Source of the DNA: Staphylococcus phage AH12
Sequence record: OR455461.1
Strand: one strand, 5' to 3'
Length of the DNA: 64,000 nucleotides
Below are positions 923 through 60,403 of this stretch, one piece after another; the first letter of the stretch is position 1, and every line of letters begins with the position of its first letter. The position numbers and the translations under genes were made by a program. The notes under the pieces are model-generated. The model saw nothing but the letters and a program-made list of their open reading frames with translations, was not told where the DNA came from and searched no databases.

Positions 923-938
923 ATTAGATTCCTCCTTT

Positions 939-1721: not shown

Positions 1722-1737
1722 TACATTGATCTCCTTT

Positions 1738-2481
1738 TTATTTAAAATTATTTTTCACTAAATATTCTTTAATAACTTTTTCATCTGTAACCTCTTCAAA
1801 TAATCCAGAATCATTAAGTAGAAAATTATAATCAAATATAGGAAATAATGTATCTTCTTGTTCTTCCATTTTTGTATATATTCTTGTCATAAAATATGAT
1901 AACTCTGATTTTTTAACATTTAATTTTAAATCTCCATATTCCATTAAATCCATCAGATAATTTAAAAGAGTTCTATTAAATTCTTTGACCAACAATTCTA
2001 TTTCTCCAAAATTTAAAATATAATCTTTATCATCTAGATTAACAAAATTTTCACTAGTATGTCTTATATCATCAGTTAAAATTAAAAGTTTTTTATTCAT
2101 ATTATTTTCTATTTTGTCATGAAAAGATCCCTCTGGAAAATCTTTTTTAAATACTCCTCCATCTAAAATAGAATTAAATTGTAAATTAAAATTCGTATTG
2201 TAATTTAATAAATCTCTTACATAATCTTTACTTGATATTCTAGAATTTTGTTTGATTTTAACTACTTTATCATTAAAAAGAGAATAATCTAAAAAAAGCT
2301 CAGATTGATAAATAAAGTTTCTTGGTCTATTAAGCATTTTTTCATTTTTATAAATATATTCCATTTGCATTTTAGTAAATATTTCAGTCAATATATCTCT
2401 ACTTAAATCAGTTCTATCAATATTAAAGTGAAGTATTTTTCCATCTATTTTATATCTATAATAATTATTATATTCCATCAT
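1738..2481 (-). CDS. hypothetical protein; C-terminal-tag paralog family (..EEVTDEKVIKEYLVKNNFK)
   Basis: 247-aa ORF. Start overlaps the stop of the upstream gene by 4 nt. Confidence 0.6.
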   Translation of the reverse strand: MMEYNNYYRYKIDGKILHFNIDRTDLSRDILTEIFTKMQMEYIYKNEKMLNRPRNFIYQSELFLDYSLFNDKVVKIKQNSRISSKDYVRDLLNYNTNFNLQFNSILDGGVFKKDFPEGSFHDKIENNMNKKLLILTDDIRHTSENFVNLDDKDYILNFGEIELLVKEFNRTLLNYLMDLMEYGDLKLNVKKSELSYFMTRIYTKMEEQEDTLFPIFDYNFLLNDSGLFEEVTDEKVIKEYLVKNNFK

Positions 2482-3299
2482 GAAAATCCTTTCTTGACTT
2501 TAAAATTTTTAATATCTTTTTCATCTGTTAATTCTTTGAATAAATCATTTTCATCAACATCAACTAAATCCAATATACTAATTAAATTAGGTCCTATGTT
2601 ATTACTGATATTAATAAAGAATTCTATATTATCTTCATACATATATTTAATTTCATAAAGAGTCATTAGTACACTAACATTATTTTGATATATTAAAATA
2701 AAGAAGAAATCTTTAAATTTTTCTATAAAATTCTTACTATAAGCCTCAATTGATGGTCCCATAAATAATGGATCGTGTTTAAGTGTATTTTCATATTTTA
2801 TATAATTAAAACTTTCTTCAAAAGATTCAAAGTGTACAAATGTACCTTCTAATCCTTTATTTATTCCTTCATTAACTAGACCATTATTATCCATCAAGTT
2901 ATCTGTAATATTATTAAAATATTTTTTAGATATTAAATTATCAAATTTAAAATGTAAGTTAAATTTTCCAATATCCATTTTATCAATTCCTCTAATGTTA
3001 TAATCAATGGAAAAATTACTATTAATTTTTTTAAGTGTATCACTTTTATTACGTGAATCTTTAAAATATATATCTTTATTAAATTTAATATCAGTAAATT
3101 TTATCGATTCATCATTCAATTCTTCTTTCTTCATTTTAATATCATCTATGAAATATTTAGAAAGATGTATATTACTTAATATATTTCTAAGATCTATATG
3201 TGTTAAAATATACGCAATATATTCATATCTATTAATGTAATTTTTTTTATTAATTTCAATTAATTCATCTTCCTTTTTATCTATAAAATATTTTGTCAT
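2478..3299 (-). CDS. hypothetical protein; C-terminal-tag paralog family (..KELTDEKDIKNFKVKKGFS)
   Basis: 273-aa ORF. Confidence 0.55.
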   Translation of the reverse strand: MTKYFIDKKEDELIEINKKNYINRYEYIAYILTHIDLRNILSNIHLSKYFIDDIKMKKEELNDESIKFTDIKFNKDIYFKDSRNKSDTLKKINSNFSIDYNIRGIDKMDIGKFNLHFKFDNLISKKYFNNITDNLMDNNGLVNEGINKGLEGTFVHFESFEESFNYIKYENTLKHDPLFMGPSIEAYSKNFIEKFKDFFFILIYQNNVSVLMTLYEIKYMYEDNIEFFINISNNIGPNLISILDLVDVDENDLFKELTDEKDIKNFKVKKGFS

Positions 3300-3335
3300 T
3301 ATCTATTTCATCTCCTAATTTATATCTATATTTCA

Positions 3336-4115
3336 TTATGAAAATCCTTTCTTGACTTTAAAATTTTTAATCTCTTTATCATCAGTTATTTCTCTAAAAT
3401 ATACATTTGCATCAAAATCATTTAAACTAATATACTTATCATATTCTTTTTCAAAACTAAAACCTTTTTCTTTTACCTTTTCATTAACGCTAAAATCCCA
3501 ATCCGGTGCAATAAGAAATTCAATATCTGAATGATCTTGTATCTGATCCAGTAATTCAAAGATTAATTTATTTGTTTCATTAAATATATCATATAAATCA
3601 TCTCTGAGTTCTACAGCTCTTTTTCCTTTTCGTATATGACTTTTATAGTATTTTAAAAATCGAGACATAGTTTCTTCATTAAATTTATGAGGTAAATACA
3701 TTTCACCATTATTATCAAATATACCGGATCTTTTACTAAATAATCTTTTACCTATCTCACTATTATTATATACAGGGAAAGCTCTAAAATTAATATAGTT
3801 ATCGTCTTCTTCTTTTAAACTAAAACGTATTGTAGAGTAGAAGAGAAGTTCCATTTTGTTTGTTTTACCTTTATATTTATATTTTACTGTAGGGAAAGAA
3901 TTAAAAAATAATCTAATACCAAATAAACCATCGTCATCATTATATTCTTCATGAGTTATGAAAAATTTTTTATTATACTTTAACTGCATTTCAGCGAATA
4001 ATTTGCTTAAAACTTTCCATTTAAAGTCAAAATATTTTGTTTCATTTTCATTGAAAGTTAATTCGATAAATTCTTTTTCAGATTTACTAGTGTAGTATTT
4101 GTTAATTTTTTCCAT
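3336..4115 (-). CDS. hypothetical protein; C-terminal-tag paralog family (..REITDDKEIKNFKVKKGFS)
   Basis: 259-aa ORF. Confidence 0.55.
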   Translation of the reverse strand: MEKINKYYTSKSEKEFIELTFNENETKYFDFKWKVLSKLFAEMQLKYNKKFFITHEEYNDDDGLFGIRLFFNSFPTVKYKYKGKTNKMELLFYSTIRFSLKEEDDNYINFRAFPVYNNSEIGKRLFSKRSGIFDNNGEMYLPHKFNEETMSRFLKYYKSHIRKGKRAVELRDDLYDIFNETNKLIFELLDQIQDHSDIEFLIAPDWDFSVNEKVKEKGFSFEKEYDKYISLNDFDANVYFREITDDKEIKNFKVKKGFS

Positions 4116-4141
4116 TTATTTAACTCCTTTTATTATAATAA

Positions 4142-4169
4142 TCCCAATACTAAATTAATAGTATTGGGA
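4142..4169. terminator. hairpin terminator TCCCAATAC-loop-GTATTGGGA
   Basis: Perfect 9-bp inverted repeat with flanking T/A runs. Same stem sequence recurs at 19047..19080. Confidence 0.5.
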
Positions 4170-4195
4170 TAACTTTTTAATAATATATATTTATT

Positions 4196-4597
4196 CTAAT
4201 CTTCAGAATTAGGTGATACTTGTCCATTTTCCATTTCTTCACGTTGTTCTTTAAGTCTGTCGAGAACTTCTTTTTCTTCTTTATTTTGAGTTAATTCTGG
4301 TTCAATTAATAATTCTTTTTCTTTCATATCTTCTAATATACTTAAACCTTTTTGAACTTCTGGCGATTCATTAGAAGGATTAAATCTATTGTGTTTATTA
4401 TCATAGTAATTTAATTTAACTAGGTCTGAATTAGTTTCAATAACTACTTCAGCTTCTATGAATAAAATATCATTTGGATCAGTCACACGCTTTCTATATA
4501 CTAAAGCTTTAGTATAAGAATCTTTTCTAAAACCATAATCTCTTAATAGTTGTTTAATATTTTCTTTATTACTATTTAATCTATATTCTGATAACAT
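4196..4597 (-). CDS. hypothetical protein with acidic C-terminus
   Basis: 133-aa ORF followed by the hairpin terminator at 4142..4169. Confidence 0.5.
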   Translation of the reverse strand: MLSEYRLNSNKENIKQLLRDYGFRKDSYTKALVYRKRVTDPNDILFIEAEVVIETNSDLVKLNYYDNKHNRFNPSNESPEVQKGLSILEDMKEKELLIEPELTQNKEEKEVLDRLKEQREEMENGQVSPNSED

Positions 4598-4610
4598 TAT
4601 AAATCACTCC

Positions 4611-4736
4611 TTAATTGTTTTTACTAAATTCATGAACTTCATTAAGATGCTCATGGTCTTGATAACTAAATTTAAATTCATATAGTTTCTTTTCAAATCT
4701 TTTTCTAGTTAATAATTCGTATAATCTTTTTAACAT
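4611..4736 (-). CDS. small hypothetical protein (41 aa, MLKRLYELLTRKRFEKK...)
   Basis: Short ORF not in the supplied track. Preceded by AAGGAGATG plus 8 nt then ATG. Confidence 0.3.
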   Translation of the reverse strand: MLKRLYELLTRKRFEKKLYEFKFSYQDHEHLNEVHEFSKNN

Positions 4737-4760
4737 ATCTAATTCATCTCCTTATTAATT

Positions 4761-5171
4761 TTAAAATGACGCATCTATTATTAAATAAAAATCATGCTTA
4801 TTGCTTTCTAAATAGTATCTATTTTGAAATATTTCTAACATTAATTTGTAGTATTTTGTTAGATCATTATCAAAATTATCTTCTTTTAATTCTTTTTTCA
4901 TTAATTCTTTTAAATTTGATTCTGAAATTACTTGAACATCATAACCTTCATCATCTTTAAAAATAGTTGAATTTTCACTTAAAACTTTAAATAATTCATG
5001 TGGTTTATATAATTCTAATTCAAATAAGTGATTTTTCTTATTTATATATCTTTTATTTTTAATATACCAATCTAAATTTCTTTGATGACTTTTATTTATT
5101 CCATATATACTAAGTTCCATACCCATAAATAATACATCTCCTATATAATAAATACCCATAATATATTGCAT
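4761..5171 (-). CDS. hypothetical protein
   Basis: 136-aa ORF. Exact start uncertain, several in-frame Met codons. Confidence 0.45.
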   Translation of the reverse strand: MQYIMGIYYIGDVLFMGMELSIYGINKSHQRNLDWYIKNKRYINKKNHLFELELYKPHELFKVLSENSTIFKDDEGYDVQVISESNLKELMKKELKEDNFDNDLTKYYKLMLEIFQNRYYLESNKHDFYLIIDASF

Positions 5172-5194
5172 TAATATATTATGGGTAAAATAAT

Positions 5195-5980
5195 TTAAAA
5201 TTCTGCTTTTTGATAGATGTTACCAAATTCATCTTTAACTATTTCATCATTACCTTCAATATCTTCAAAGATAAGATCTCTAGTCATAGCAAATAATTCT
5301 GGATATTCATCTTCAAGTTCATCTTCTTCAATGATATTCATTTCTTTATCGGCAATTACTAACTCATATTCATCTAAATTATCACCTAATACAAAGAATT
5401 TCAATGTGTCTTTATATACTTTTAAAATAGATGATAAGTCTTGATGTTTAAGTTCATTAACCTCTTTTTGTAATTCTTCTCTTTTTTCAATTTCTTTTTC
5501 ATCTTCATCTATATTTTTATTTAGATTTTCTAAAGTTTGATCTAATTTATCTTTCAAATCTTCTTCTTCTTCAGTAGTATCTTCTTCATTTTCTGTCATA
5601 CTGTTCAATATATCTTTATTAGACATAGTATTAAGCTGACTAAGTACATTTTTAGCAAGAACTTTATAATTATCTTCAGATTCATCATCTTCAACCATTT
5701 TCTGAGCTTTCATAGTTAAGTCAATAATATCTTTTTTAACATTTTTCATTTGCATAATAGTGTCTTTAATTTCTTTTTCTACACTAATAATGTTAGCTTC
5801 CATATTAGATACAAATGTATGTTTAGGATATTTCAGATTCTTAGTCAGATCTCTAATTCTTTCTTCTAATTGAATTTCTTTACGTTCCATTTTAGATTTA
5901 AATCCAACTAGCATTTTATATTCTTCCATCATATCATTAATTTGTGAAATTAAATCAATTTCATTATTTTCATTAGACAT
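5195..5980 (-). CDS. hypothetical acidic coiled-coil protein
   Basis: 261-aa ORF, Glu/Lys/Asp-rich heptad-like sequence. Confidence 0.55.
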   Translation of the reverse strand: MSNENNEIDLISQINDMMEEYKMLVGFKSKMERKEIQLEERIRDLTKNLKYPKHTFVSNMEANIISVEKEIKDTIMQMKNVKKDIIDLTMKAQKMVEDDESEDNYKVLAKNVLSQLNTMSNKDILNSMTENEEDTTEEEEDLKDKLDQTLENLNKNIDEDEKEIEKREELQKEVNELKHQDLSSILKVYKDTLKFFVLGDNLDEYELVIADKEMNIIEEDELEDEYPELFAMTRDLIFEDIEGNDEIVKDEFGNIYQKAEF

Positions 5981-6026
5981 TTATTTAATCACTTCTTTCA
6001 TATATTATAAAAGTAAGTTAATTAAA

Positions 6027-6713
6027 TTACTTAAAGTTTTTATTTACTAAATAGTTTTTAATTTCTTTCTCATCTTTAACTTCAATAAATTTCTTATTGA
6101 AATTTAATATATTATAATCATCTAATGTCCCATCTTTATATTTAGAGAAATCTTCTAGTTTTATTTTATTCTTATTTTCTTCAAATTCTTCTAGAATTTC
6201 TTCATTAATTATATATAAATCAATATCATCATTTTCAATTTCTTTTAATATCGCTTCAAACATTTCACTAAAGAAAATCTGATCGTCTTCTTTATGAGTG
6301 TATTCAAATTTAGGATAATTTTCATATTCAAATAATTTCCGGTTATAAAATAAGTTTCTTACTTTTGTGAAATTTCCAACGCTTTCAAATTTATTAAGAG
6401 TTGCAGCAGTAGGTACAAGTTTAATATCAATTATAGCTTCATGATTAAGCTTCAACCGAATAATCAATTCTATTTCTTTTATTCTATACATGATATTATT
6501 GTGATTAATTACAATGAACTTTCTAGTCATTCCTTGATGCCTTAATATATAGTCTCCTTCTGTATATTTCTCATGCTTCACTAAGTATAGATTATCATCT
6601 ACATAGTTAATGAATGAAAAAGCTCTAATATATTTTTCTATCCCATCTTTTGCTTCTACATATTTTCCATTATCTTTATTTTTGTATAATTTGAAATCAT
6701 ACATATCATTCAA
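6027..6713 (-). CDS. hypothetical protein; C-terminal-tag paralog family (..EVKDEKEIKNYLVNKNFK)
   Basis: 228-aa ORF. Confidence 0.55.
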   Translation of the reverse strand: MNDMYDFKLYKNKDNGKYVEAKDGIEKYIRAFSFINYVDDNLYLVKHEKYTEGDYILRHQGMTRKFIVINHNNIMYRIKEIELIIRLKLNHEAIIDIKLVPTAATLNKFESVGNFTKVRNLFYNRKLFEYENYPKFEYTHKEDDQIFFSEMFEAILKEIENDDIDLYIINEEILEEFEENKNKIKLEDFSKYKDGTLDDYNILNFNKKFIEVKDEKEIKNYLVNKNFK

Positions 6714-7323
6714 ACCCTTTCTTGACTAAGTAATTTTTAATTTCCTTTTCATCCGTTACTTCTTCAAATAGTTCATCTATATTACTTAAATCATAGATTT
6801 CTTTTATATTATCTTTACTTATTTTGTAATCATGAATATTATCTTTATCATTTAATGAAAATACATTGAATATAGAACCATTTTTATTAAATATATCTCT
6901 AGTCAAGTATTCTTTAGCTTTGTCTATTAAAGTTTTTCCTTCAGTATATATTTCTCCATCATTAAAATAAAATTTACTTTCACCTTCTTCAGATACAAAA
7001 GGTCCTATTTCACAGTGAACTTCTTTTTTTGAAAACTTTGGAATATTCAATACAAAACTAAATTCATATTGACCGTCATTTTTATCTACGAAAAGATCAA
7101 ATTCATTTACATAAAAAAGATTATTCATATCATAACCGAATCTTAGAATTAGACCATCCATAGAATTTATCCACAGACGAACATTTTCAACATCATAACC
7201 AGTACAGCCCGGATGTTTGAAAAATTGATCAAAAGATATATCAAATAATTCTTTTCTAGAAAGACTCTTTTCATTAATGAAACTATATTCTAGGATGTCA
7301 GACACATATAATGTTTTATTCAT
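6706..7323 (-). CDS. hypothetical protein; C-terminal-tag paralog family (..EEVTDEKEIKNYLVKKGFE)
   Basis: 205-aa ORF. Confidence 0.55.
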   Translation of the reverse strand: MNKTLYVSDILEYSFINEKSLSRKELFDISFDQFFKHPGCTGYDVENVRLWINSMDGLILRFGYDMNNLFYVNEFDLFVDKNDGQYEFSFVLNIPKFSKKEVHCEIGPFVSEEGESKFYFNDGEIYTEGKTLIDKAKEYLTRDIFNKNGSIFNVFSLNDKDNIHDYKISKDNIKEIYDLSNIDELFEEVTDEKEIKNYLVKKGFE

Positions 7324-7341
7324 TTTAATTACCTTCTTTCA

Positions 7342-7887
7342 TCATTTAAAATTTTTCTCTACTAAATATTTTTTAATTTCTTTTTCATCTTTAATTTCAT
7401 CAAAGCATTCTAATATACCGCTAATATCTCTTTCAATCCCATCAATAATTATTTTTAATTCAATTCTATCATTCTTAATAATATAATCAGAAGCATTAAC
7501 AACGGATTGAATTAAATCTCCTTTATCAGTTTCATAATTATCAAGAAGAATATATGTGTATAATCTAGTATTAACATTGTATTCTCTTAATTTAAATAGA
7601 TCTAATGGTAATCTAATTCTAGAATATACCAATATGCTATTATTGTCTCCATGCGTTATTGATAAAGGACCTTTTAAATAACCATCTATTTTCATGTATA
7701 CATTTGATAAATAATCATAAATACTAATATCATCAGAATCACTTCTTATATAAACATTAGTAAATAATATTAATAAAGATAAACCTAACACACGATCATT
7801 TTCTATATTATTATGATTAAATTGTATTATTTTATGATGTTTACTTTTTCTTAAAAATCTAGAGTTTTTTAAATCCATATATTTCAC
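7342..7887 (-). CDS. hypothetical protein; C-terminal-tag paralog family (..DEIKDEKEIKKYLVEKNFK)
   Basis: 181-aa ORF. Confidence 0.55.
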   Translation of the reverse strand: MKYMDLKNSRFLRKSKHHKIIQFNHNNIENDRVLGLSLLILFTNVYIRSDSDDISIYDYLSNVYMKIDGYLKGPLSITHGDNNSILVYSRIRLPLDLFKLREYNVNTRLYTYILLDNYETDKGDLIQSVVNASDYIIKNDRIELKIIIDGIERDISGILECFDEIKDEKEIKKYLVEKNFK

Positions 7888-7893
7888 TTCTCT

Positions 7894-8535
7894 CTACTTA
7901 AAATTTTCTTTAACTAAGTATTGTTTAATTTCTTTTTCACTTTCTAATTTTTCTAAGACCTTGTATATTTCATCGAGTGTATATTCTTCTAAAATTAAAT
8001 CTTTCTTAAATTCTCGACTTGTCATAAAATCAATATCATCCTCTACAGAATCAACTGTATATATTATTAAATTTGTTTCTTTTTTACTACTAAAGAGATC
8101 AATTATATTTGAAATTAATTCATGTTCCAAATTATCTCTATTTTTAATTTGAATTTTAGCTGTATATGAAAATACTTGACTACTAATTGAACTTTTAAAA
8201 GGTCCTATATTCTTGTATCCATTTTCATTTTTATCTAATAATGAAAATACAAAATATAATTCAAAATAATTATTATTGCACGTGTCTGTTATATCTATAT
8301 AAGAATTCTTAGTTCTGTAATAAGTATTTTTATCCCTTATCAAAATACTATTGGTTTTTAATGAAAATAAACCAATTTCATCTATTTTTTTCTTAACGTT
8401 ATTAAAATTAAATAATTCTTTGAATAGATTAACATTTAATTCATCTTTAGTAACATCTTTATTAGTTACTATTATTTGCCCTCTACTATCAACTTTATAG
8501 AATTCATGATTATTTATATATTCATTATTATCCAT
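7894..8535 (-). CDS. hypothetical protein; C-terminal-tag paralog family (..ESEKEIKQYLVKENFK)
   Basis: 213-aa ORF. Confidence 0.55.
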   Translation of the reverse strand: MDNNEYINNHEFYKVDSRGQIIVTNKDVTKDELNVNLFKELFNFNNVKKKIDEIGLFSLKTNSILIRDKNTYYRTKNSYIDITDTCNNNYFELYFVFSLLDKNENGYKNIGPFKSSISSQVFSYTAKIQIKNRDNLEHELISNIIDLFSSKKETNLIIYTVDSVEDDIDFMTSREFKKDLILEEYTLDEIYKVLEKLESEKEIKQYLVKENFK

Positions 8536-8569
8536 ATTAACTTCATCTCCTCTATTTAAAATATTATTA

Positions 8570-8600
8570 GAGATAATGAATTATTATAATCCATTATCTC
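8570..8600 (-). terminator. hairpin GAGATAATG..CATTATCTC
   Basis: 9-bp inverted repeat in intergenic gap. Confidence 0.35.
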
Positions 8601-8629
8601 ATTTTTATAATATATATTTAATACATATT

Positions 8630-9301
8630 TCACCTAAATCCTTCTTTAACTAAGTAATTCTTGAATTCTTTATCAGTAGCAGTTCTAAATAAATCTTTAT
8701 TGTGTAAATTAATATCTTTTAAACTATAATATGATCCATCAATTAAAAACTGTAGGTCTTCATATTTATTCAATTCACTTATCATCTTGATGAATTGTTT
8801 TTGAAACTTCTCAAGTGATAAGTGAAATTTAGGACATCTTTCACTAATACTATTCAAAGCAACGCCTTCATTTTTGGTTAGTTTAATTGTATTAAGTTTA
8901 CTATTTATACTTGTACCCATCTTCATCATATTATACTCATACAACATTTCATCTTTTAGATAACTATTATCTTTCTCTTTACTTATTAATTTTAATTCAG
9001 TTTTTACAAATGATATTCCAGCAAAACTAGTTGATCCTGAATCCATATTTTGATAATAAGACAACTTCATATTCTTATAATCATTAAACCCTCTTAATTT
9101 CAGTTTACATTCAACTGTAAATTGCAATACATTTTCATAATCAGGATTAGCGTTATCAGTTAATAATTTTATCATATTGATAGTATCTACTCTTTCAATA
9201 TAATCTCTATCATTATCATATCTATCTTTATTTATTTTCATGAAACGATTATCTTCCAAATCTTTATTTATTATATATAAATCAAAATCATAACCTTCCA
9301 T
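8630..9301 (-). CDS. hypothetical protein; C-terminal-tag paralog family (..TDKEFKNYLVKEGFR)
   Basis: ORF 8630..9397 trimmed to the Met (MEGYDFD) that follows AAGGAGG. This removes the overlap with the upstream gene. Confidence 0.5.
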   Translation of the reverse strand: MEGYDFDLYIINKDLEDNRFMKINKDRYDNDRDYIERVDTINMIKLLTDNANPDYENVLQFTVECKLKLRGFNDYKNMKLSYYQNMDSGSTSFAGISFVKTELKLISKEKDNSYLKDEMLYEYNMMKMGTSINSKLNTIKLTKNEGVALNSISERCPKFHLSLEKFQKQFIKMISELNKYEDLQFLIDGSYYSLKDINLHNKDLFRTATDKEFKNYLVKEGFR

Positions 9302-9314
9302 TAACAATTCCTCC

Positions 9315-9800
9315 TTATTTAAAATGATTTCTAACTTTAAAATCTTTAACTTCTTTACAATCTTCTGAGATAATTTCAAATATATCTTCATTATCAAAAT
9401 TGAATTTTTCTAATGGAATATTATAATATTTCATATTTATATCTATCGTATCACATATTCTTTTATAAAATAAATAATAAAGATCAACTGAAGAGTCTGA
9501 TATGACAAGATTTTGATTTGTTAAATTTATATTTTTAGGTATAAAAGGGGCACTATTAAAGTCCCAATTAATATGTGTAGCTAAATTATGATTAGTAAAA
9601 TCGTAAATTAAGAAAAAATCTAGTTTTATATTACCTTCTTCTTCATCATATAATTCAATCTTTTTACCATCAGATTTATAAAAAGAAAAATTTTCTTTTT
9701 TAAATTCATTATTGAATACATAATAGAAAGCATCGTCTTTTCTATGAATATCATTAACTTCATATATTTCATTATTTACTTTATCTTTGTAATATATCAT
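9315..9800 (-). CDS. hypothetical protein; tandem duplicate of 9818..10297, short version of family tag (..VKDFKVRNHFK)
   Basis: 161-aa ORF. Its first ~30 aa and the underlying DNA are nearly identical to the neighbour. Confidence 0.55.
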   Translation of the reverse strand: MIYYKDKVNNEIYEVNDIHRKDDAFYYVFNNEFKKENFSFYKSDGKKIELYDEEEGNIKLDFFLIYDFTNHNLATHINWDFNSAPFIPKNINLTNQNLVISDSSVDLYYLFYKRICDTIDINMKYYNIPLEKFNFDNEDIFEIISEDCKEVKDFKVRNHFK

Positions 9801-9817
9801 TATCTATTTCAGCTCCA

Positions 9818-10297
9818 TTATTTAAATGTATTTCTAACTTTAAAATCTTTTACTTCTTGACTATTTTCATCCAATATTTCAAATATATCTGTATTACTAA
9901 ATTTAAAATCTTTTAATTTGACATAGTACTTTGATAATTTTTGATCTATCTCACATATATTTTTATATATTAAATAATAGAGATCCTCAGCAGAATCACT
10001 TGAAATAAAATTTTGACTCATTAAATTAAGTTGATGGCCCATTAAAGGTACATCTTTATTCCATGAAGGAATTAATGTCGTTTCATAATTAATAAAATTA
10101 TAACGAATATCAAATCTATATTTTAAAAATCCATACTCTTCATCTATAAATTCTACTATTTTGCTACTAGAAAAATACATATCCTCAAATGTTGGTAAAA
10201 ATTCGTTTCCAAATACATAATAGAATGCATCATCACTTCTATGAATATCATTAACTTCATATATTTCGTTATTTACTTTATCTTTGTAATATATCAT
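9818..10297 (-). CDS. hypothetical protein; tandem duplicate of 9315..9800 (..VKDFKVRNTFK)
   Basis: 159-aa ORF. Confidence 0.55.
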   Translation of the reverse strand: MIYYKDKVNNEIYEVNDIHRSDDAFYYVFGNEFLPTFEDMYFSSSKIVEFIDEEYGFLKYRFDIRYNFINYETTLIPSWNKDVPLMGHQLNLMSQNFISSDSAEDLYYLIYKNICEIDQKLSKYYVKLKDFKFSNTDIFEILDENSQEVKDFKVRNTFK

Positions 10298-10311
10298 CTA
10301 TTTACCCTTCC

Positions 10312-11022
10312 TTATTTAAAATTTTCTTTAATTAAATATTTCTTAATTTCTTTTTCATCAGTTATTTCTTCAGATATAGAATACAGATAATTTTTAATAT
10401 ATTCCATAAAAGGTATAAACGCTCCATCTATATTAATTGACATATCTTTTAATATATAGTGAATCAGACTGTCTAAAGACTTATATTCATTATCTTCTAT
10501 ACTCTCTAAATATTCTTTTTTAAAATCTACTCTAAAAGATATATCTTCATCAATTAGCATTATTCTTTTAATTGAGTATTTCTCACTGTCACAATTATCT
10601 AATACATTTTTTACCTTTTGAGGGTTTTTTATTTTTAAAACAATTTGAAATATTCTTTCATTATCAATATTATCATAAAAACAAACAATTGAAGCCTTTA
10701 TTTTATCAGAATCATTACCCTTAATTACCATATTTTTATCTTTTCCAGTTAGATTTTTAAGATTCATAATAATATCTGAGTAAATATAAAAATGGAAATT
10801 CATCTGCATATTGTTTACTAGAAAACTACTATCAAGAAATTCAATATTCTTTTGATTTTTATTTGTTATATGTTCCATAGCTTTATATAAAAATCTACCA
10901 TTATCAATTTCATTATTATTTAAAGAAAATTTTTGATTAGTTATTGTATTATTGTATACTTTTATATTATTCATTTTATCCACCTCAATTTTATAATATA
11001 TATTTAAATAAGCATTTTGCAT
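10312..11022 (-). CDS. hypothetical protein; C-terminal-tag paralog family (..EEITDEKEIKKYLIKENFK)
   Basis: 236-aa ORF. Confidence 0.55.
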   Translation of the reverse strand: MQNAYLNIYYKIEVDKMNNIKVYNNTITNQKFSLNNNEIDNGRFLYKAMEHITNKNQKNIEFLDSSFLVNNMQMNFHFYIYSDIIMNLKNLTGKDKNMVIKGNDSDKIKASIVCFYDNIDNERIFQIVLKIKNPQKVKNVLDNCDSEKYSIKRIMLIDEDISFRVDFKKEYLESIEDNEYKSLDSLIHYILKDMSINIDGAFIPFMEYIKNYLYSISEEITDEKEIKKYLIKENFK

Positions 11023-11079: not shown

Positions 11080-13246
11080 TTATTCTTTAGTTAAAGAATA
11101 TAAAGCTTGTACCATATATTTATGATAATTAGACTATATCTTATGATATTTAAATCATTTCCATATTTAGTCGTTGAACAACTTTTATTAAGTTGATGCT
11201 GATTAGTTTTGTTTTTCCAGCAATTAATGAAATTTATTGAGAGCATACAAACTTACTCTCATTACCAACTCCACGTATACTATTTCCTGTGTAGTTTAAG
11301 TAATTAGTTTTCTTATTAATAAGTTTATCAGCTTCTTTATTTGCCTCTACAGACCATAAAGAGCGTATTGAAATCATATCCATTTTATATACATGTATTT
11401 ACATATAATTAGACTATATCTTCTTTAGTAATATATTTAGTCGTTGAACAACTTTTATTAAGTTGATGCTGATTATCTTATAGATTTTCCAGCAATTAAT
11501 ATTATTTAATGATGGTAATATGAAATTTTGCCATCAAAGTCAGCCGTAGTATTAACTTCATATAAATTTTTTATGAAGACTAGACTATATCAAACACTTT
11601 TAATTAAGTGTAATTATATTTAGTCGTTGAACAACTTTTATTAAGTTGATGCTGGTTAGATTTGACATTCCAGCAATTAATAATTTTTTGACATTATATC
11701 GCTATAATGAAAGGTCATTAAAATAGCCAAGTGCTTGAGCATATGAATTGTGTATGATTGCAGTATCTAAGAAAATATCTTCATCAATAGGATATTCTCT
11801 TACTACTTTAGGGTAATCTTTTAATACTATATCATCTAAAACTATTTCTGGAATAGTATCAACAGTAGTTAATATTTTAATTTTAGCAGGGGCTACGTTC
11901 AAGAAATTTTCGCATTTATTATATTTATATAATACTTATATAAATTAGACTATATTATATACTATTTAATAGTACCATTGCATTTAGTCGTTGAACAATT
12001 ATATTTAATTGATGCTGATTAACTTTATTAATAGTATTTCAGCAATTAACAGTGTTTATCGACTTAAATCACTTTAAGAAGCGACCATTTTATTAATCGG
12101 ATATCTTGAATACATAACATGCTTATCTTCTACTATTTCAGTTGCAGCGATATAAAGTAAATCAATTACAGTAAAATCTCTACCTAAAGTATTTTCAAAT
12201 AATTTAACTTTATGACGTTTACCTTCTCTATCATTTACATATATAGGACTAAATCTTTCATTAGGATCTTTAATAAAAAATTCTAGCATATTCTTAATTT
12301 CTTTATCATCAAATTGTTCATAAACTTCCTCTAATGAAAGCTCTTTATCTCCTTCACCTGTAGCTGTTTGGAAAGCATCTTTATGAAGTTCAATAAAATC
12401 AATTATATACTTATTAAAGAATGGTAAGAATAATGTAACTAATTGAGTTAATGGTACACCTAACTCACCAAACTCTATCTGCATTTCATCCCATTTATTC
12501 GAATTAATTTTAGGTGAAGAAATAACTGCACGAGTACTATTATCTACTGTTTTACCCAATATACGTTTTTGCATAAAACCAGTTTTACCTGATAATTCTC
12601 CTGAAGTAAATTTCTGATATATTTCAAATAATGTATTTTGTATATTATATTTAGTACTGTTAGCTATAAATCCGAATGAATTAAAACTAATAGCATCTAC
12701 AGAACGTATAATAGAAGAATACATATTATTAACTTCTTCAGTATCTTGAATTTCTCCTGAAGTTTCATTAGGATTAAAGTCTCTATAAAATGCAGGTATT
12801 ACTAACCATTTATCTACAAATATTTTTTGTTTATCCGTATTCTTAATCATATCAATTTTTTCAGATCTAATACGAGAATCATTCTTTCTAAATTTTAAAT
12901 CATCAAATACTTCATATAAGAAATTCAGTCCAGTGTCTCCATCTTCTGAAGGAACTAATTGACCTTTTTCTACTTTAAAATACTCTGAACCCTGAATACA
13001 TAGTTCAATATTTTTATCTAAATCTTTTAATGCTTTATAAGCTACCGGATTAAGGTATTTATCCTTTAAATTAATCCAACCTAAATTATTTTTTCTTTCA
13101 GGAGTACCTATCAAACCAAATATGTCATATGAAAATAAACCATCATCTTTTGGTAGTATACCCGAATCAAAAAATACAGGGTTGGTTACTTCTTTAGCAT
13201 TAGTGTCAGTTATGACTTGTTCAATATCTATCATATCTACTTTCAT
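11080..13246 (-). CDS. multisubunit RNA polymerase beta-prime-like subunit, N-terminal/catalytic-loop part. Split gene: join(13246..12096, 11912..11717, 11544..11530, 11380..11255, 11112..11080), about 506 aa
   Basis: Exon A contains GKTGFMQKRILGKTVDNSTRAVI, matching the beta-prime [23 protein letters not shown] motif. Predicted spliced product reads ..GYFN-ADFDG-DMISIRSLWSVEANKEAD.., matching ..[26 protein letters not shown]... Exon E gives ..VQALYSLTKE, matching VVLGLYYMTR. Exon borders were derived from P1/IGS pairing and reading frame. Confidence 0.7.
11113..11254 (-). ncRNA. ultra-compact group I intron R4 (142 nt) in the RNAP beta-prime-like gene
   Basis: P1 is exon GAGAGU paired to IGS GCUCUC with terminal U.G, 10-nt loop. 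Same core. Ends ..AUAUAUG before GUACAAGCU (V Q A). The first intron nucleotides encode KFVCSQ* when unspliced. Confidence 0.7.
11381..11529 (-). ncRNA. ultra-compact group I intron R3 (149 nt) in the RNAP beta-prime-like gene
   Basis: Same core. Hairpin UGAUGG(C)-15 nt loop-CCAUCA(A) forms P1. Ends ..AUAUAAAAUG immediately before GAUAUGAUU (D M I). The 5' splice site appears to follow C of GGC, facing A in the IGS. Confidence 0.6.
11545..11716 (-). ncRNA. ultra-compact group I intron R2 (172 nt) in the RNAP beta-prime-like gene
   Basis: Same conserved core. 5' exon ends ..UUUUAAU (Asn). GNRA hairpin CAUUAUA-GCGA-UAUAAUG lies in the P1 loop. Tentative IGS is GUCAAAA. The terminal G sits just before GCUGACUUUGAUGGC. 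Exact 3' splice site is tentative. Confidence 0.55.
11913..12095 (-). ncRNA. ultra-compact group I intron R1 (183 nt) in the RNAP beta-prime-like gene
   Basis: P/Q/R/S cores present (UUAAUUGCUG, AAUCAGCAUC, GUUCAACGACUAAAU, GAUAUAGUCUA). P1 is exon CGAU paired to IGS GUCG with U.G at the splice site. GNRA-capped hairpin CUUAAA-GUGA-UUUAAG. Ends ..AAUAAAUG. The reading frame is restored (AU + C = Ile). Confidence 0.7.
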
Positions 13247-13249
13247 TTA

Positions 13250-13540
13250 CTATTTCACATCACTTTCTTTTAATAATGGATTAATATCTTTTTCAATATA
13301 ATAATCTACCATAGTTTCTTTATTATAATATTTTAGTAATTCTTTATTATCTTCTTTATTAAATGAATTATACATTAATGTAGTAATACATATAAATAAA
13401 ACGATTATCATATTAAAGGATAGTATAATAATTTTATTACTTTTTTTGTAATTAGTTTTACTTAATAATACTACAGACGGTATAGCAGCTAAAATAAGAT
13501 ATAATAAAGAAAAAACTATTATGAAATCTTTAATTTCCAT
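13250..13540 (-). CDS. small membrane protein (two predicted TM helices)
   Basis: 96-aa ORF with hydrophobic stretches IIVFSLLYLILAAIPSVVLL and IIILSFNMIIVLFICITTLM. Confidence 0.5.
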   Translation of the reverse strand: MEIKDFIIVFSLLYLILAAIPSVVLLSKTNYKKSNKIIILSFNMIIVLFICITTLMYNSFNKEDNKELLKYYNKETMVDYYIEKDINPLLKESDVK

Positions 13541-13597
13541 TTTTCATTTTAATTTCCCTTCTCAATGTCAATTTTTATAAAAAAAAAATTATAATAA

Positions 13598-13630
13598 ATC
13601 CATGTTTGACTTGAATTTGTCAAACATGGA
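13598..13630 (-). terminator. rho-independent terminator
   Basis: 13-bp perfect stem ATCCATGTTTGAC..GTCAAACATGGAT followed on the minus strand by a U10 run. Confidence 0.6.
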
Positions 13631-13638
13631 TTATTTGT

Positions 13639-16336: not shown

Positions 16337-18626
16337 CTAAAATTTAACCATATTTGATACGAAAGAACTATTTGAAGATTCTAACACTTTAACTCCAATA
16401 GATTCAATAATATCTTTACCTGGTTTAATGTGATCTTCTATCATTGAATCATAATCAATAAATGGTCTAAACTCTTCAGGTATTTTATTTCCTTCTACAG
16501 CAATTACATTCATTCCATTTTTAACTAATCTTTCGTTTCTAAATATTTCTCTAAATTTATCTAATAATTCTTCATCATCAACTTTATCTTTAATATCTCC
16601 AAATGATTTAATATTTAACTTAACCATTAAGATATTTGATGGAAGAGATATTTCTTTATCTGGATACATTAAATTCCATGATAAAGCTGCTCTATAATTC
16701 ATTTGTGTATAAGGATCTTTATATACTTCTGCATTATTAGCTTTACCAGGTTTTAAGAATTCAATATCACCATTCTCTAATGATTTTTTAATCATCTCTT
16801 CAATTTCTTTATATTTACGTATAATACCAATTCTATCAATACCAGTTTTATTTTCTAAAATATCTTTCTGTAGTATTTCAGTGAATAATTCTCTAATACG
16901 TTTATTAGTATTAACTTTTCTAATAGCCATACCTTTAACATCTAAGTCTGGTGGTTGAACTAAATTACCTTCTTGTTGTATTACTGATGATGCATAAGTT
17001 TTCTTTTTATCTGTTGTTAATTGTTTGTCAAGTAAAACGTTTATACTTATATTTAAAATATAAGACTAGACTATATCATATTCTTTATTATTAAGAATTA
17101 TTATATTTAGTCGTTGAACTTCATTATTGAAGATGCTGATTAAGTTTATTTTGTCTCAGCAATTAATAATATTTACTAATACACATTACTGTATACTGGA
17201 GCATTTACATACTCATTTTTCATTGATATAACACCTAAATGTTCATCTTCTAATCCTAAATCTTTACAGAATCTATGATAAGATAATTCTAGTAATTTAG
17301 TTATTTGATAGTTAATAATAGATATATTACCTACACGTTGTTCTAATTTATCTTCTAAACCATTTTCTGCAATAGGGAAATCTTCAGGTTTCTTTTCTTT
17401 CATTTTTTGATATAATGGATCTAAATGTACAAAGTTACTATCTGTCTTTAATATTATATTTTTAAATATAAAATAGACTATATCATATACTCTTTATGAG
17501 CATCATTATATTTAGTCGTTGAACAATCATATTGATTGATGCTGATTAATTTAATAAATACTTTCTCAGCAATTAATAATGTGAATCAACTTAAATTACT
17601 TTAAGCGGCGACCATGTTATCATAATCGATTGTAAGTACACTTCTACGTTTTTTATAATTCATTCTATACATTCTATTGTAATCTTGATAATTATAGATA
17701 ACCCAGTCTTCTAATATATCAAATAATTCATCTAATAATGGAATCATATCTTCAGGTGGTTCATTTGGATCTAAGAAATCTTCTCTACCAGTCATTTTAC
17801 TAATTTTATTATCAAATATATCTGTATGATCTAATAAACCATAAAGATTATTTTTAAAATAAACTCTATTTTTCTCATCTTGAGTTAAATTACTAAAGAA
17901 TTCTTTCAAATCATTTTCTTCATCTTCAGAGAAATTATATTCTACGTTATCCAATAAACCTTTTAATATTTCATTATCAGTAGGAACTGAATTTATCTTA
18001 ATATCGTGTTCTTTATATTCTTCTTGACATATTCTTACGATATAATTATAAATCTCACTAATATTCATAAAGAATATTTTACTTCCTATAAATCTTTCTA
18101 AAGCTATTGCTGAAGTAGTAACAATATCAACACCACTATATGTGATAGCAGGGCCTGAATAAGGATCATAGAAAATACTATTTCCTTGTATCATTGCACC
18201 ATAGTAACTATTAGCCAAAATCTTAATTGTTTTTTGCTCGTTCATATATTTATGATATTTAATATCGTCTACACCTTTACTTATAAACATATTATGTTTA
18301 GCTACTTTACGTGAGTCAATGAAGTCTTTTAACATCTCTGCATTTAAATTTTTTCTTTGTGATTGTGGTTGATAAATCGAACCTGATCCAGTTACTATTA
18401 AATTTGAATTAATAACTGTACGTAATAAAGAATCAACATTCATTTCTTGACCTGATACTTCTGTCATGACAGGTTTAACATTTTCTTTTACAAATTCTCT
18501 ACACTCTTTTAATATTTCTTCTTTATCAAAATCAGGATTATTCTTTTGAACCATCCATACCAATTGTTCTAAGTATCCGGTTAAAGCTCTTTTTCTTTCT
18601 TCTTTATTCTTTAATTCTGTTGTCAT
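16337..18626 (-). CDS. family-B DNA polymerase, C-terminal catalytic (palm/fingers/thumb) part, encoded as its own gene. Split gene: join(18626..17625, 17445..17193, 17037..16337), about 651 aa
   Basis: Exon 1 has motif B KILANSYYGAMIQG (Kx3NSxYG). Predicted splicing joins ..VLTID to TDSNFV.., giving motif C IDTDS (cf YGDTDS). Exon 3 has the KKxY motif DKKKTYASS. AGGAGGT RBS lies before the ATG at 18626. The N-terminal exonuclease part and motif A are not in this gene. Confidence 0.7.
17038..17192 (-). ncRNA. ultra-compact group I intron (155 nt) between polB exons 2 and 3
   Basis: Same core. P1 is exon GUAU plus intron AC, paired to IGS GUGUAU with U.G at the splice site. Hairpin CUUAUAU..AUAUAAG precedes the 3' end ..AUAAACG. 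The frame is restored (U + UU = Phe). Confidence 0.6.
17446..17624 (-). ncRNA. ultra-compact group I intron (179 nt) between polB exons 1 and 2
   Basis: Same P/Q/R/S core. P1 is exon CGAU paired to IGS GUCG with U.G. GNRA hairpin CUUAAA-GUAA-UUUAAG. Closely related to intron R1, same 5' flank AUGGUCGC..CUUAAAGURAUUUAAGUYGAU. Ends ..AUAUUAAAG. The unspliced frame reads YDNMVAA*. Confidence 0.7.
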
Positions 18627-58052: not shown

Positions 58053-60403
58053 GATTCACATTCAACAATACCTTGAGAATTTTCATCATGGTCTGGTGAA
58101 TAAATACGAGTATAATACATAGATTTAATACCTTTACTGTAAGCATAGTTACGTAATCTACTAATATCACGAGTAGTAGTTTCTTTATCTAAAGAATCTT
58201 TTTTCCATTCATACAATTCAGGATCAAGTTCATTCATTAAATAAATATTCATAGAGATACCTTGATCAACATGATATTGAGCTTCTGAATATAAATCAAT
58301 CATATCACGCATATCTAATTGATAAGCATTTTTCTTAAAGTAATCAAAGTTATCTGGTGTAATACCTGGTGCTGGATAGAAAGTAGTACCTGTTTTACCT
58401 TCTACACGTTCTTCAATTAATTCAACAATAGGGTGAATTGAAGGTGATACTTCTCTAACATAACCAATAGAACCATTAGGTGCTACAGCTAATCTATTTT
58501 GATTGTATAAACCATCCATAACGATATTATTTCTTAATTGTTCCCAATCACTATCAGATGGAATAAAGATATCTTCAAATAATTCTTTAACTTTTTCAGT
58601 ACGTGGTTGAATATTTTTACCAATATAACGTTTATCAAAGTAAGAACCATCAGCATATTCAGTTTTTTCAAATAAATAGAATGATTCATCTTTTTCTTTA
58701 GCAATTTTATTTGATTCAACTAACGTCCAATAGTTTAATAGCATGAAATAAATATTAGTGAAATCTTTAGATTCTTCTGATCCATATTGAATATGATTTT
58801 CAGCTAAATAAGTGTGTAATCCCATTGCACCTAAACCAACTGTATGGAATAAATCATTAGCTTTCTTAACTGTAGGTACAGCTTCAATATTAGATTTTTC
58901 TGCTACTGAATTTAAACTTCTTAACATAGTTCCAACTGATTTACCAAAGTCTTCTGATTTCATTAAACCAGGTACGATAGTTGAAGCTAAGTTACATGAA
59001 ACATCTGTTCCTGTTTTAACATATTGTTGATTATCGTCAACTAATGAAGGGTATTGTACTTGCAGAATTTCACTACACAAATTACTCATTTTAATTGTAC
59101 CATGACTAATTGGATTAGCTCTATTAGCTGTATCAATATTAATAATATAAGGATATCCAGATTCTTGTTGTAATTTACTAATAGTAGTTTCTAAATCACG
59201 AGCATACATTTTCTCTTTACCAATACGTTTATCATCTACAAAGATATCATAGTAAGTATTAAAGTCAATACTATCGAAATCTAAATCATAATATTTTTTA
59301 ATATCATATGGACTAAATGTATATAATGATTTATTTTCTTTAACTAATTGGTAATATTTATCTGGAACTGTTAAACCTAATGAAATAGTTTTTAGTCTTA
59401 CTTTCTCATCAGCATTTTCTTTCTTAGTATCTAAGAATTTCACTACATCTTTATGGAAAATATTTAAGTAAAGTGCACCTGCACCATTTCTTTGCATTTA
59501 TATTAACTATATGAAATTCATATAGATTAGACTATATCTTATACTATTAATAAGTATTATTATATTTAGTCGTTGAACAATCATCTTGATTGATGCTGAT
59601 TAAGTTTATAAACTTTTCCAGCAATTAATATTATTTATACTGAGCCATTAAAATTAACCCAGTTGATTTACATATGATAAAGTATCTTCAAATACTTTCA
59701 TAACTGGAACTACTCCTGAAGCAGCACCTTCAACACCTTTAATTGGATCATTATCAGCACGTAGATTACTTAAAGATACTCCTATTCCTCCACCACGTTT
59801 ACTTAATTGTGCCACATTAGAGATATTTCTATAAATAGATGATAAAGAATCCTCCATAGTTAATAAGAAACAACTTACTAACTCACCAGAACGTACTCTA
59901 CCTGCATTAAGAAATGTAGGTGTAGCTGGTTGGAAAGTACCTGTAATAATTTCATTAGCAATATCTCTAGCTAATTCTTCATCACCGTCAGCTAAGTATA
60001 AAGCTACAAATAAAATTCTATCTTCATATAGTTCTAATAAGATTTCCCCTGCATCATCTTTCATTGCATACTGTTCATAGAATTTTTTAGCTCCTAATAA
60101 ACGAGTAAAACGATGTTTATAAGCCATTAATTCTTTCATTAATCCTTTAATAAATTCAAAATTATAGTTATTGATCATATCTCCATCAATATAATCATTA
60201 TTAACTAAGTAATTAATTTTTTCCTTATATGTTTTAAAATATCTTACATTCTTATTAACTTTTTCATCGAAGTATTTACTAACAGAAGCTAACTCAAATT
60301 CTAGATCTAAATTACCGTCTTTTAATTGTGAACCTCTTGAATTCAATTCATTGTATGAATAATCTTTGAACTTTTCTGAGTTTAAGTCTATTTCTTTTGT
60401 CAT
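58040..60403 (-). CDS. nrdE: ribonucleotide reductase class Ib alpha subunit. Split gene: join(60403..59657, 59494..58040), about 733 aa
   Basis: Exon 1 has ..TFQPATPTFLNAGR..GELVSCFLL..SKRGGGIGVSLSNLR... Exon 2 has ..QRNGAGALYLNIFH.. and the C-terminal Cys pair (CESCSI). Predicted splicing gives the seamless ..NQLG-QRNGAGA.. junction. Confidence 0.8.
59495..59656 (-). ncRNA. ultra-compact group I intron (162 nt) in nrdE
   Basis: P1 is exon CUGGGU paired to IGS GCUCAG (C-G, U-A, G-C, G.U, G-C, terminal U.G), 11-nt loop. P/Q/R/S cores AAUUGCUGG, AAUCAGCAUC, GUUCAACGACUAAAU, AAGAUAUAGUCUA. P9-like hairpin CUAUAUG..CAUAUAG. Ends ..AUAUAAAUG. The ATG of the downstream ORF is actually the intron 3' end. 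Confidence 0.8.

Follow-up and report, generated by a model that had tools for sequence, protein, structure and literature searches.

The minus strand of Staphylococcus phage AH12 (sequence record OR455461.1), in the 64,000-nucleotide (nt) stretch that we call the window, carries between positions 13246 and 11080 a gene for a 503-aa homologue of the N-terminal part of the RNA polymerase (RNAP) β′ subunit, and the coding sequence of that gene is broken into five pieces (Table 1). The first piece belongs to a 390-aa open reading frame (ORF; 13246..12074, minus strand) that ends at a stop codon 22 nt inside an intervening sequence and is followed by about 1 kb without a long ORF. Further coding pieces downstream of exon 1 were recovered by tblastn with uninterrupted homologues; the queries were the proteins of Listeria phage LPJP1 (503 aa) and phiR1-37, then those of SA1 (503 aa) and BpSp (504 aa). 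When the five exons are joined, they make 1512 nt, i.e., 503 codons and a stop codon that ends exactly at 11080. The window is very AT-rich (20-34% GC).

Table 1. Predicted features of the AH12 window. Positions are those of the 64,000-nt window; a downward arrow marks a splice junction, here and in the text.
Feature	Position	Strand	Length	Details
Exon 1	12096..13246	minus	1151 nt	Residues 1-383 and the first two bases of codon 384; from the ORF list and its translation
Intron 1	11913..12095	minus	183 nt	P1 CGAU/GUCG, U·G; P2 CUUAAA-GUGA-UUUAAG; ends in G
Exon 2	11726..11912	minus	187 nt	..ENFLNVAPAKIKILTT..NSYAQALG to residue 446; tblastn with phiR1-37 and SA1 proteins
Intron 2	11545..11725	minus	181 nt	After GGC; proposed P1 GGC/ACC, C(-1)·A; P2 AUUAUA-GCGA-UAUAAU; ends in G
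Exon 3	11530..11544	minus	15 nt	Micro-exon encoding A447 D F D G451 (GCUGACUUUGAUGGC), with two of the three catalytic Asp residues
Intron 3	11381..11529	minus	149 nt	P1 UGAUGGC/ACCAUCA, C(-1)·A; P10 GAUAUG/CAUAUU; ends in G
Exon 4	11255..11380	minus	126 nt	DMISIRSLWSVEANKEADKLI..GNES, residues 452-493; tblastn with LPJP1, E 3e-12
Intron 4	11113..11254	minus	142 nt	P1 GAGAGU/GCUCUC, U·G; P10 GUACAA/UUGUAU; ends in G
Exon 5	11080..11112	minus		VQALYSLTKE and stop; agrees with the SA1, BpSp and LPJP1 C-termini
Intrinsic-terminator-like hairpin	11068-11038	minus		14-bp stem with 5 G-C pairs, T-rich tail; begins 12 nt past the stop codon
Family intron, DNA polymerase gene	17039..17208	minus		R1 94.5 bits; junction ambiguous
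Family intron, B-family DNA polymerase gene	17446..17624	minus		R1 108.3 bits; splits the DTDS catalytic motif (..TID↓TDS..); P1 CGAU/GUCG as in intron 1
Second virion-RNAP piece	55830-56603	minus		Ortholog of CPT_Machias_083, 'viral RNA polymerase beta-prime subunit, C-terminal' (β′-C), 98.4% identity over 248 aa
Family intron, ribonucleotide reductase large subunit gene (nrdE)	59495..59656	minus		R1 102 bits; ..VNQLG↓QRNGAG..; P1 CUGGGU/GCUCAG

The spliced product contains SGKTGFMQKRILGKTVDNSTRAVIS at residues 219-243 (the GK..G segment), ADFDGD, the Mg2+-binding loop of the double-psi β-barrel domain, at residues 447-452, and the C-terminus ..ALYSLTKE at residues 496-503, which aligns to about residue 516 of E. 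coli β′. It matches PHROG 2986, 'RNA polymerase beta subunit', with an E-value of 2e-108 (residues 1-499 versus profile positions 8-535 of 539). Searched alone against the PDB, the spliced sequence retrieved the β′N subunit of AR9's non-virion RNAP (nvRNAP; 7S00_d, E 5e-13), confined to residues 2-247, and bacterial β′ weakly (0.003), at exactly the two hallmark segments. With a profile of four sequences, the E-value of the AR9 nvRNAP β′ (7S00_d) fell to 3e-21, and β′/γ of bacteria, chloroplasts, and cyanobacteria were matched at 5e-11 to 1e-7; positions 439-504 of the profile align to E. coli β′ 450-516 at 3e-8, and the GK..G segment aligns to M. tuberculosis β′ 402-463 and chloroplast β′ 351-385 (5e-11). 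The Pfam family PF00623 scores 25.3 bits at residues 437-473, equal to its gathering score, in the spliced product only; exon 1 alone yielded no Pfam match.

The protein has one Cys in 503 residues, and therefore no zinc finger, the zinc-binding Cys4 element of bacterial β′ being absent. About 215 residues ahead of the GK..G segment align to the N-terminus of AR9 nvRNAP β′N; in full-length PDB searches residues 2-247 align only to that protein, and a PDB sequence search with the N-terminal 119 aa alone gave no match. The C-terminal half of β′ (bridge helix, trigger loop) is not in the same polypeptide, as the stop codon at 11080 is followed by a terminator-like hairpin (terminator-like sites: 3 found versus 0.3 expected). 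Such an absence is expected for split phage enzymes, in which β′-mid and β′-C are separate genes. On the other side of the gene, a small ORF (13250-13540) directly ahead of the β′-N start codon probably forms one transcription unit with β′-N, and a bidirectional terminator-like hairpin with a 14-bp stem (13597-13632) lies upstream of that ORF. An initial annotation, made from the letters and a list of ORFs, had already placed a β′ fragment at 11080-13246, extending from the GK..G segment through DFDGD to an equivalent of LYYMTR and lacking the C-terminal half. The location (on the minus strand), the three landmarks, and the end just past the catalytic double-psi β-barrel region all hold, and the profile check it had suggested places the spliced product in β′ (by PHROG 2986, the PDB profile search, and PF00623) and in no unrelated family. 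Its estimate of about 506 aa becomes 503 aa with the five-exon join, and its statement that the N-terminal zinc-binding clamp region is missing is correct for the zinc part but goes too far for the rest: the product does not begin at the GK..G segment, and an N-terminal region is present ahead of it.

When compared to phage genomes by tblastn, the exon 1 protein is 97.7% identical to its counterparts in Machias and PB50 and 82-85% identical to those in LY01, SA1, MarsHill, S6, and others, and it aligns to AR9/PBS1 g145, annotated as 'virion RNAP subunit, β′ N-terminus', with 43% identity over 386 aa (E 4e-98). Its nearest orthologs carry the annotation 'viral RNA polymerase beta-prime, N-terminal'. 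At the DNA level, the window is 95% identical to PB50 and Machias over about half of its first 25 kb. The split just after the catalytic barrel is at the site described for both β′-like subunits of jumbo-phage RNAPs (PMC7598289). One could instead assign the product to the β′-N position of the non-virion RNAP, given that the sole solved homologue is the AR9 non-virion β′N (7S00_d), but the match to that paralog (E 5e-13) covers residues 2-247 only as against the 386 aa aligned with the virion subunit g145, the nearest orthologs bear the 'viral' label, and in Machias the nvRNAP β′-N subunit has its own gene, at 1701-2822 and beyond; we consider this assignment highly improbable. We are instead quite confident that this gene, whose five exons have four group I introns between them, encodes the β′ N-terminal subunit of the virion-packaged multisubunit RNAP in a Staphylococcus jumbo phage of the AR9/PBS1 type. 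The protein and its general arrangement are already known from public relatives (97.7% identity for exon 1).

The β′-N protein would join β′-mid, β′-C, β-N, and β-C to form a packaged and injected RNAP that transcribes early genes, as in AR9 and phiKZ; virion RNAP is needed for early transcription in this phage group (PMC7598289). A candidate for one of these partners is the β′-C ortholog at 55830-56603, whose true start is probably near 56576, whose neighbours are the ribonucleotide reductase β subunit and the tail sheath, as in Machias, and whose product matches PHROG 2926, 'virion structural protein'. The scanned window ORFs of at least 200 aa yielded no further RNAP piece. Machias carries virion β-N, β-C, and β′-mid plus non-virion β-N, β′-N, β-C, and a specificity subunit (preprint 10.1101/2020.12.14.422802), and its non-virion "beta' subunit" gene is taken to be β′-C. 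The initial annotation had read the fragment as part of the split multisubunit RNAP of a jumbo phage and had assigned the window to such a phage, and the split site, the orthology with AR9 g145, and the DNA identity to PB50 and Machias bear this out; it had also asked for further RNAP fragments in the genome, of which the β′-C ortholog would be one. Its description of a gene in pieces is right as regards the separate subunit genes and can be refined, since the gene itself is also cut by four group I introns, which it had implied but left uncharacterised.

The intron-less SA1 gene fixes all four junctions at the protein level. All four introns end in G directly before the ortholog-defined exon, as expected of a terminal guanosine (ωG), and each carries a 5' guide able to pair with the last bases of the exon upstream; the guides of introns 3 and 4 also pair with the start of the downstream exon. 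Joining across intron 1 (CCGAU↓uaauaaaauGGUCGc ... ..aaaug↓CGAAAA) yields AUC-GAA (I-E), as in SA1 YPIENF(LNV), which sets the CCGAU↓ junction; this intron has no clear P10, and its P2 is capped by a GNRA loop. Intron 2 is bounded by UUGGC↓uauuuuaauGACCuuuc ... ..acuacg↓GCUGAC, intron 3 by UGAUGGC↓aaaauuuCAUAUUACCAUCA ... ..aaaaug↓GAUAUG, and intron 4 by GAGAGU↓aagUUUGUAUGCUCUC ... ..auauaug↓GUACAA. The guide of intron 3, CAUAUU followed by ACCAUCA, pairs with both exons and sets C(-1) opposite A, so that part of the 15-nt ADFDG exon must double as the 5' strand of intron 3 P1. Exon 3 itself was placed by its sequence, by the intron-less SA1 gene (..LGADFDGDMISIR..), and by alignment to Machias and PB50. 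None of the four introns has room for an ORF.

Four other placements were tried and rejected. If intron 1 is placed at ATT↓..GC↓, the protein is unchanged but the last base of the intron would be C, and placing intron 2 at CUU↓..ACG↓ would delete a Gly. With intron 3 at GAU↓.., no in-frame join yields DFDGD; at GG↓c..u↓G the protein is again the same, but there is neither U(-1) nor a terminal G.

Each gap contains one copy of a repeat of approximately 110-130 nt. When compared to the Rfam group I intron model RF00028, intron 3 scores 31.2 bits (E 9.6e-6), intron 4 28.4 bits (E 6.7e-5), intron 1 20.1 bits (E 0.019), and intron 2 13.9 bits (E 1.5), with the J3/4-P4, P7, and J8/7-P7′ consensus matched in the alignments. 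The scores are below gathering because peripheral helices are missing, and Rfam searched at the gathering threshold found no match in the whole window. Seven copies of the conserved 15-mer GTTCAACGACTAAAT are present in the window, always on the minus strand: four times here, twice in the DNA polymerase gene, and once in nrdE. Helices P3, P4, P6, P7, and P8 were drawn by hand on an alignment of the seven window cores, in which 97.3% of cells are paired versus 26-56% with slid partners, and 13 pairs are changed on both sides, a number reached by 0 of 500 shuffles. A covariance model of the intron family (R1) scores introns 1 to 4 at 100.5, 112.6, 98.2, and 108.4 bits, respectively. It detects 20 copies in the window plus the related β′ loci (97.7% paired over 18 distinct sequences), 30 in the whole Machias genome (MW349128, 274 kb), and 235 in 707 kb of IMG/VR viral contigs, the contigs counted being those that share the family motif; the IMG/VR cores are 95.4% paired over 35 distinct sequences, with 225 doubly changed cells versus 65±7 in shuffles. 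Minimum-free-energy folds recover P4, P6, P7, and P8/P9, and in intron 4 P1 as well. The group I core fold predicted for the four introns is thereby well supported, and by sequence they are members of a single family.

The standard U·G pair is found at the 5' splice sites of introns 1 (CGAU/GUCG) and 4 (GAGAGU/GCUCUC). We confidently predict that intron 3 uses C·A in place of this near-universal pair, and intron 2 probably does so as well. In intron 3, the 36 nt from the 5' splice site to P4 contain no G, and DFDGD cannot be restored by any in-frame join having both U(-1) and a terminal G. MarsHill and LY01 have, in their orthologous intron, ACGGU↓..GCCGU: the splice-site pair is U·G, and at position -4 a compensating C-G stands where AH12 intron 3 has U-A. 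This has the look of an exchange of U·G for C·A in which the wobble geometry is kept. According to Doudna (1989), as cited in PMC5769748, C·A+ can stand in vitro for the G·U of P1. Among 29 Machias copies tabulated by eye, 28 offer U(-1)·G; only intron 3 has C·A.

For intron 2, the C·A pair is proposed because of the alignment with intron 1 and with a relative in the Machias nvRNAP β′-N gene. This relative, at the homologous G↓AD site, is the nearest by blastn (80.6% identity over the aligned part, 75% over the whole intron), and its guide AGCC pairs with GGU↓ (U·G), the guide of intron 2 being GACC (C·A). A fully canonical arrangement of intron 2 can also be drawn, GGCU↓...ACGG↓, with U·G and a terminal G, in which the micro-exon would have 14 nt, residue 447 would be Ser (..ALGSDFDGD..), and only intron 3 would keep a non-canonical 5' splice site. 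The G of the GACC guide is indeed available for pairing with U(+1), the following G of ..ACGG can act as terminal G, and since orthologs have a small Ala or Gly at this position (GADFDGD, GADYDGD, GGDYDGD), Ser, which is also small, might be tolerated. However, the intron-less Machias/PB50 and SA1 alleles have Ala, Ala also precedes DFDGD in bacterial β′ (NADFDGD), and the splice-site pair is formed by the second base of the homologous tetranucleotide in intron 1 (gGUCG) and in the Machias nvRNAP intron (aGCC), not by the first. We find the Ser447 arrangement unlikely. The predicted tryptic peptide would be ..ALGADFDGDMISIR with Ala447 and ..ALGSDFDGDMISIR with Ser447.

In the proposed pathway, the pre-mRNA would lose the four introns by guanosine-initiated self-splicing and the ligated mRNA would then be translated, which would give rise to the peptides ..SYAQALGADFDGDMISIR, ..NSYAQALGADFDGDMISIR, and ..GVGNESVQALYSLTK. 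The same locus could be viewed as a decaying pseudogene, or as separate fragments, in which the insertions are inert and unspliced repeats (similar to miniature inverted-repeat transposable elements, or IStron remnants): the 390-aa ORF runs into a stop codon, PB50 is annotated with three separate coding sequences (CDSs), the insertions form a repeat family, and some Machias copies adjoin TnpB-like transposase ORFs. Against this, every exon piece is in frame and conserved, the differences from Machias being only synonymous or conservative, the insertions show group I cores with covariation, guides complementary to the exons, and a G as last base, and the five-residue ADFDG peptide could not be made by itself. 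Moreover, virion RNAP is required for early transcription (PMC7598289), and cultivated phages share the arrangement: Machias was isolated and propagated (preprint 10.1101/2020.12.14.422802), and PB50 is likewise a propagated isolate sharing introns 1, 3, and 4. A pseudogene or unspliced fragments would therefore seem a very poor explanation.

Several points nevertheless weigh against an actively spliced virion RNAP gene. Splicing is deduced from DNA sequence. All four RF00028 scores are under the 50-bit gathering score, and the introns are very small, with P2 absent in introns 3 and 4, P5 vestigial, and P8 almost missing from intron 3; a protein cofactor may be required, or splicing may be poor. 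The P1 of intron 2 is weak, with two G-C pairs plus C·A and no convincing P10, and the canonical, if unlikely, GGCU↓...ACGG↓ alternative giving Ser447 exists for it. Finally, the product of 55830-56603 has no sequence match in PDB or Pfam, and its β′-C label therefore derives solely from another group's annotation of Machias. The spliced virion β′-N gene remains the reading that we favor.

The intron content of the β′-N gene differs among its orthologs: SA1, LPJP1, and BpSp have no intron, Machias and PB50 have three, the AH12 window has four, MarsHill has three, one with a homing-endonuclease gene, LY01 has five, leaving exons of 14 nt and 9 nt (..AG↓ALGAD↓FDG↓DMIS..), and AR9 has two, both with endonuclease genes. 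The uninterrupted orthologs LPJP1, SA1, and BpSp have 503-504 aa and a common end, ..YSLT(K/R)(E/D). Machias (CPT_Machias_117) and vB_StaM_PB50 share introns 1, 3, and 4, nearly identical and at the same sites (intron 1 is also found in LY01), but are without intron 2 and therefore without the 15-nt exon. Exactly the 181 nt of intron 2 are missing as a single gap in the alignment, and the two phages read cttggt gcagat there. Around this site there are 3 synonymous differences, at -1, +3, and +6, as against 4 in the other 186 nt of exon 2, a clustering compatible with co-conversion or flank adaptation. The Machias record joins three pieces and runs into intron 4, PB50 lists its three CDSs separately, and the last exon is annotated in neither.

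AR9 g145 and its PBS1 counterpart are orthologs interrupted near the same two places, past YPIE.. and within D(F/Y)DGD. The AR9 introns, however, are approximately 1.5-1.9 kb long, contain homing-endonuclease genes, and are located at YPIEQY↓N and DYD↓GD, whereas the four of AH12, at YPI↓E, LG↓AD, DFDG↓D, and NES↓V, contain no ORF and measure 142-183 nt. More distant are AR9 nvRNAP β′N (gp270; 7S00/7S01 chain d), bacterial β′, and cyanobacterial γ (RpoC1), which share the GK.G..RK..GKR.D.S.R.VI segment and the DFDGD loop. The AR9 nvRNAP polypeptide also ends past the catalytic β-barrel, at the split site common to jumbo-phage β′-like subunits, but it is a distant paralog (profile E 3e-21); the AH12 protein is without zinc-finger cysteines, and the bacterial protein is about 900 residues longer.

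Unannotated interruptions were also seen in two further relatives. The LY01 virion β′-N gene (3640-5045 of its locus) has four mini-introns plus one intron of approximately 390 nt of another type, between which lie micro-exons of 14 nt (CGUUAGGUGCCGAU) and 9 nt (UUUGACGGU, encoding FDG); the annotated pieces are all labelled 'hypothetical protein'. In phiR1-37, g178 is annotated to end in ..GGDFDGKF*, and about 1.4 kb follows before the frame resumes at 5324 (DTFRLIGLFSDEANREA..; locus 3919-5324). Since a group I core is located at 4928-5286 (RF00028 44.1 bits, E 1.4e-9) and the frame resumes after it, an unannotated intron lies at the same DFDG↓D site. The 310-aa ORF inside that intron, g179, had no Pfam match.

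Two known systems invite comparison. Staphylococcus phage Twort also has several related ORF-less group I introns in one protein gene, orf142, and in both phages splicing could in principle connect the 5' site of one intron with the 3' site of another. The Twort introns reportedly measure roughly 250 nt or more, with longer exons between them, whereas the AH12 introns measure 142-183 nt, one AH12 exon has 15 nt, and one or two 5' splice sites are C·A. As cited in PMC11878797, Landthaler & Shub (1999) described three related group I introns and exon skipping for orf142. IStrons are group I introns fused to an IS605-family tnpB element (PMC4227781, PMC10690162). A likeness to these is found in Machias only, where three family cores, at 79306-79416 (minus strand), 205563-205678 (plus strand), and 227936-228045 (plus strand), lie directly upstream (about 100 nt) of same-strand TnpB-like 'transposase' ORFs; a fourth Machias TnpB-like ORF, at 272224-273429, has no core upstream. 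In contrast, none of the seven window copies carries an ORF, and the window introns thus lack the tnpB that defines an IStron.

Of the three family introns elsewhere in the window, those at 17446-17624 and 59495-59656 have G as their last base and U·G in P1. The one at 17039-17208 can be placed in three equivalent ways, with G(-1) and a terminal G, U(-1) and a terminal U, or U(-1) and a terminal C. The 30 Machias cores are in RNAP subunit genes, in the prohead protease, terminase, nrdE, gyrB, and both DNA polymerase genes, and in the gene of one virion protein, and exons between adjacent introns there measure 6, 11, 16, and 18 nt. In the Machias nvRNAP β′-N gene, the 6-nt exon is GCCGAU (..GMG↓AD↓YDGD..), and the annotation stops at the first intron. 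On uncultivated viral contigs of 200-400 kb in IMG/VR, cores often stand 4-6 in tandem, about 200 nt apart. Examples are found at 11091-12245 (minus strand) of locus L062 and at 6274-7195 (plus strand) of locus L038. In the former, six cores interrupt a β′-like gene within 1.3 kb (NRQPSLHEYSIF.. / ..VCEPLNAD / FDGDTVSIR / LVPPEAAEETYERMS; NAD↓FDGDTVSIR↓LVPPEA..). When searched by tblastn against 80 IMG/VR loci, the spliced or intact protein gave no match, although L062 read by eye has this chopped β′-like gene; homology searches are therefore blind to such micro-exon genes.

Related introns are found after CGAU↓ at five sites in four genes: β′ YPI↓E, DNA polymerase ID↓TDS, GyrB DAD↓, and AD↓F/YDG in two β′ paralogs. 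Such repeated CGAU↓ sites are what guide-directed insertion would give, and the family sits preferentially in catalytic-motif codons of essential enzymes. A 'CGAU-targeting' subfamily is only weakly separated by pairwise identity (66-81% within the group versus 75-79% to the nrd intron). Machias, MarsHill, and Madawaska each have a reverse transcriptase gene. The ORF-less family of miniature group I ribozymes (approximately 140-185 nt) to which the four introns belong has proliferated in jumbo phages of the AR9 type. We tentatively suggest, without holding it probable, that this family is non-autonomous and reaches new sites by guide-directed reverse splicing into RNA, followed by copying by the phage's own reverse transcriptase. 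The case for reverse splicing is circumstantial, and mobilisation by TnpB-bearing IStron 'master' copies would be an alternative route. The micro-exons (from 27 down to 6 nt) and C·A wobbles may then be tolerated by-products of repeated invasion of catalytic acidic-motif codons, namely DFDGD in RNAP, DTDS in DNA polymerase, and DAD in GyrB.

Some other genes of the window deserve mention. The minus strand at 194-11022 has about a dozen tandem ORFs of 160-270 aa, with no PHROG match among those scanned; several look like paralogs, and those at 9315-9800 and 9818-10297 share a MIYYKDKVNNEIYEVNDIHR.. start and an ..EVKDFKVRN.FK end. A 647-aa ORF at 24603-26546 (minus strand) is assigned to 'HNH endonuclease' (phrog_1314) by PHROGs and to the VWA-like DUF2201 by Pfam (residues 507-638), so the two libraries disagree.

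The preprint on MarsHill, Madawaska, and Machias (10.1101/2020.12.14.422802) reports that RNAP genes are disrupted by introns and predicts exon numbers from protein alignments; the introns are not typed. We searched the literature accessible to us for the intron features described here, for the smallest group I introns, and for phage micro-exons, and found nothing relevant, which is not proof of novelty. Within that limit, what would be new are intron 2 together with the ADFDG exon of 15 nt, how small and how numerous the family's members are, and the predicted C·A splice sites. The interest of the locus lies on the RNA side and not in the polymerase.

The spliced model offers a corrected gene model for an essential enzyme whose public records are truncated (Machias), divided into three CDSs (PB50), or labelled 'hypothetical protein' (LY01). 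These records miss the last exon and all micro-exons, and the 15-nt exon with two of the three catalytic aspartates is of a kind that homology-based annotation misses. If the introns splice as proposed, they would be among the smallest natural group I introns known to us. They would also provide a natural C·A 5' splice site, a pair which to our knowledge has previously been shown in place of U·G only with engineered ribozymes, and would mean that two ribozymes can flank an exon of 15 nt, or of 6-9 nt in relatives. Relatives that are about 95% identical and differ by one ORF-less intron, together with the CGAU sites and the reverse transcriptase, would make this phage group a workable system for tests of reverse splicing.

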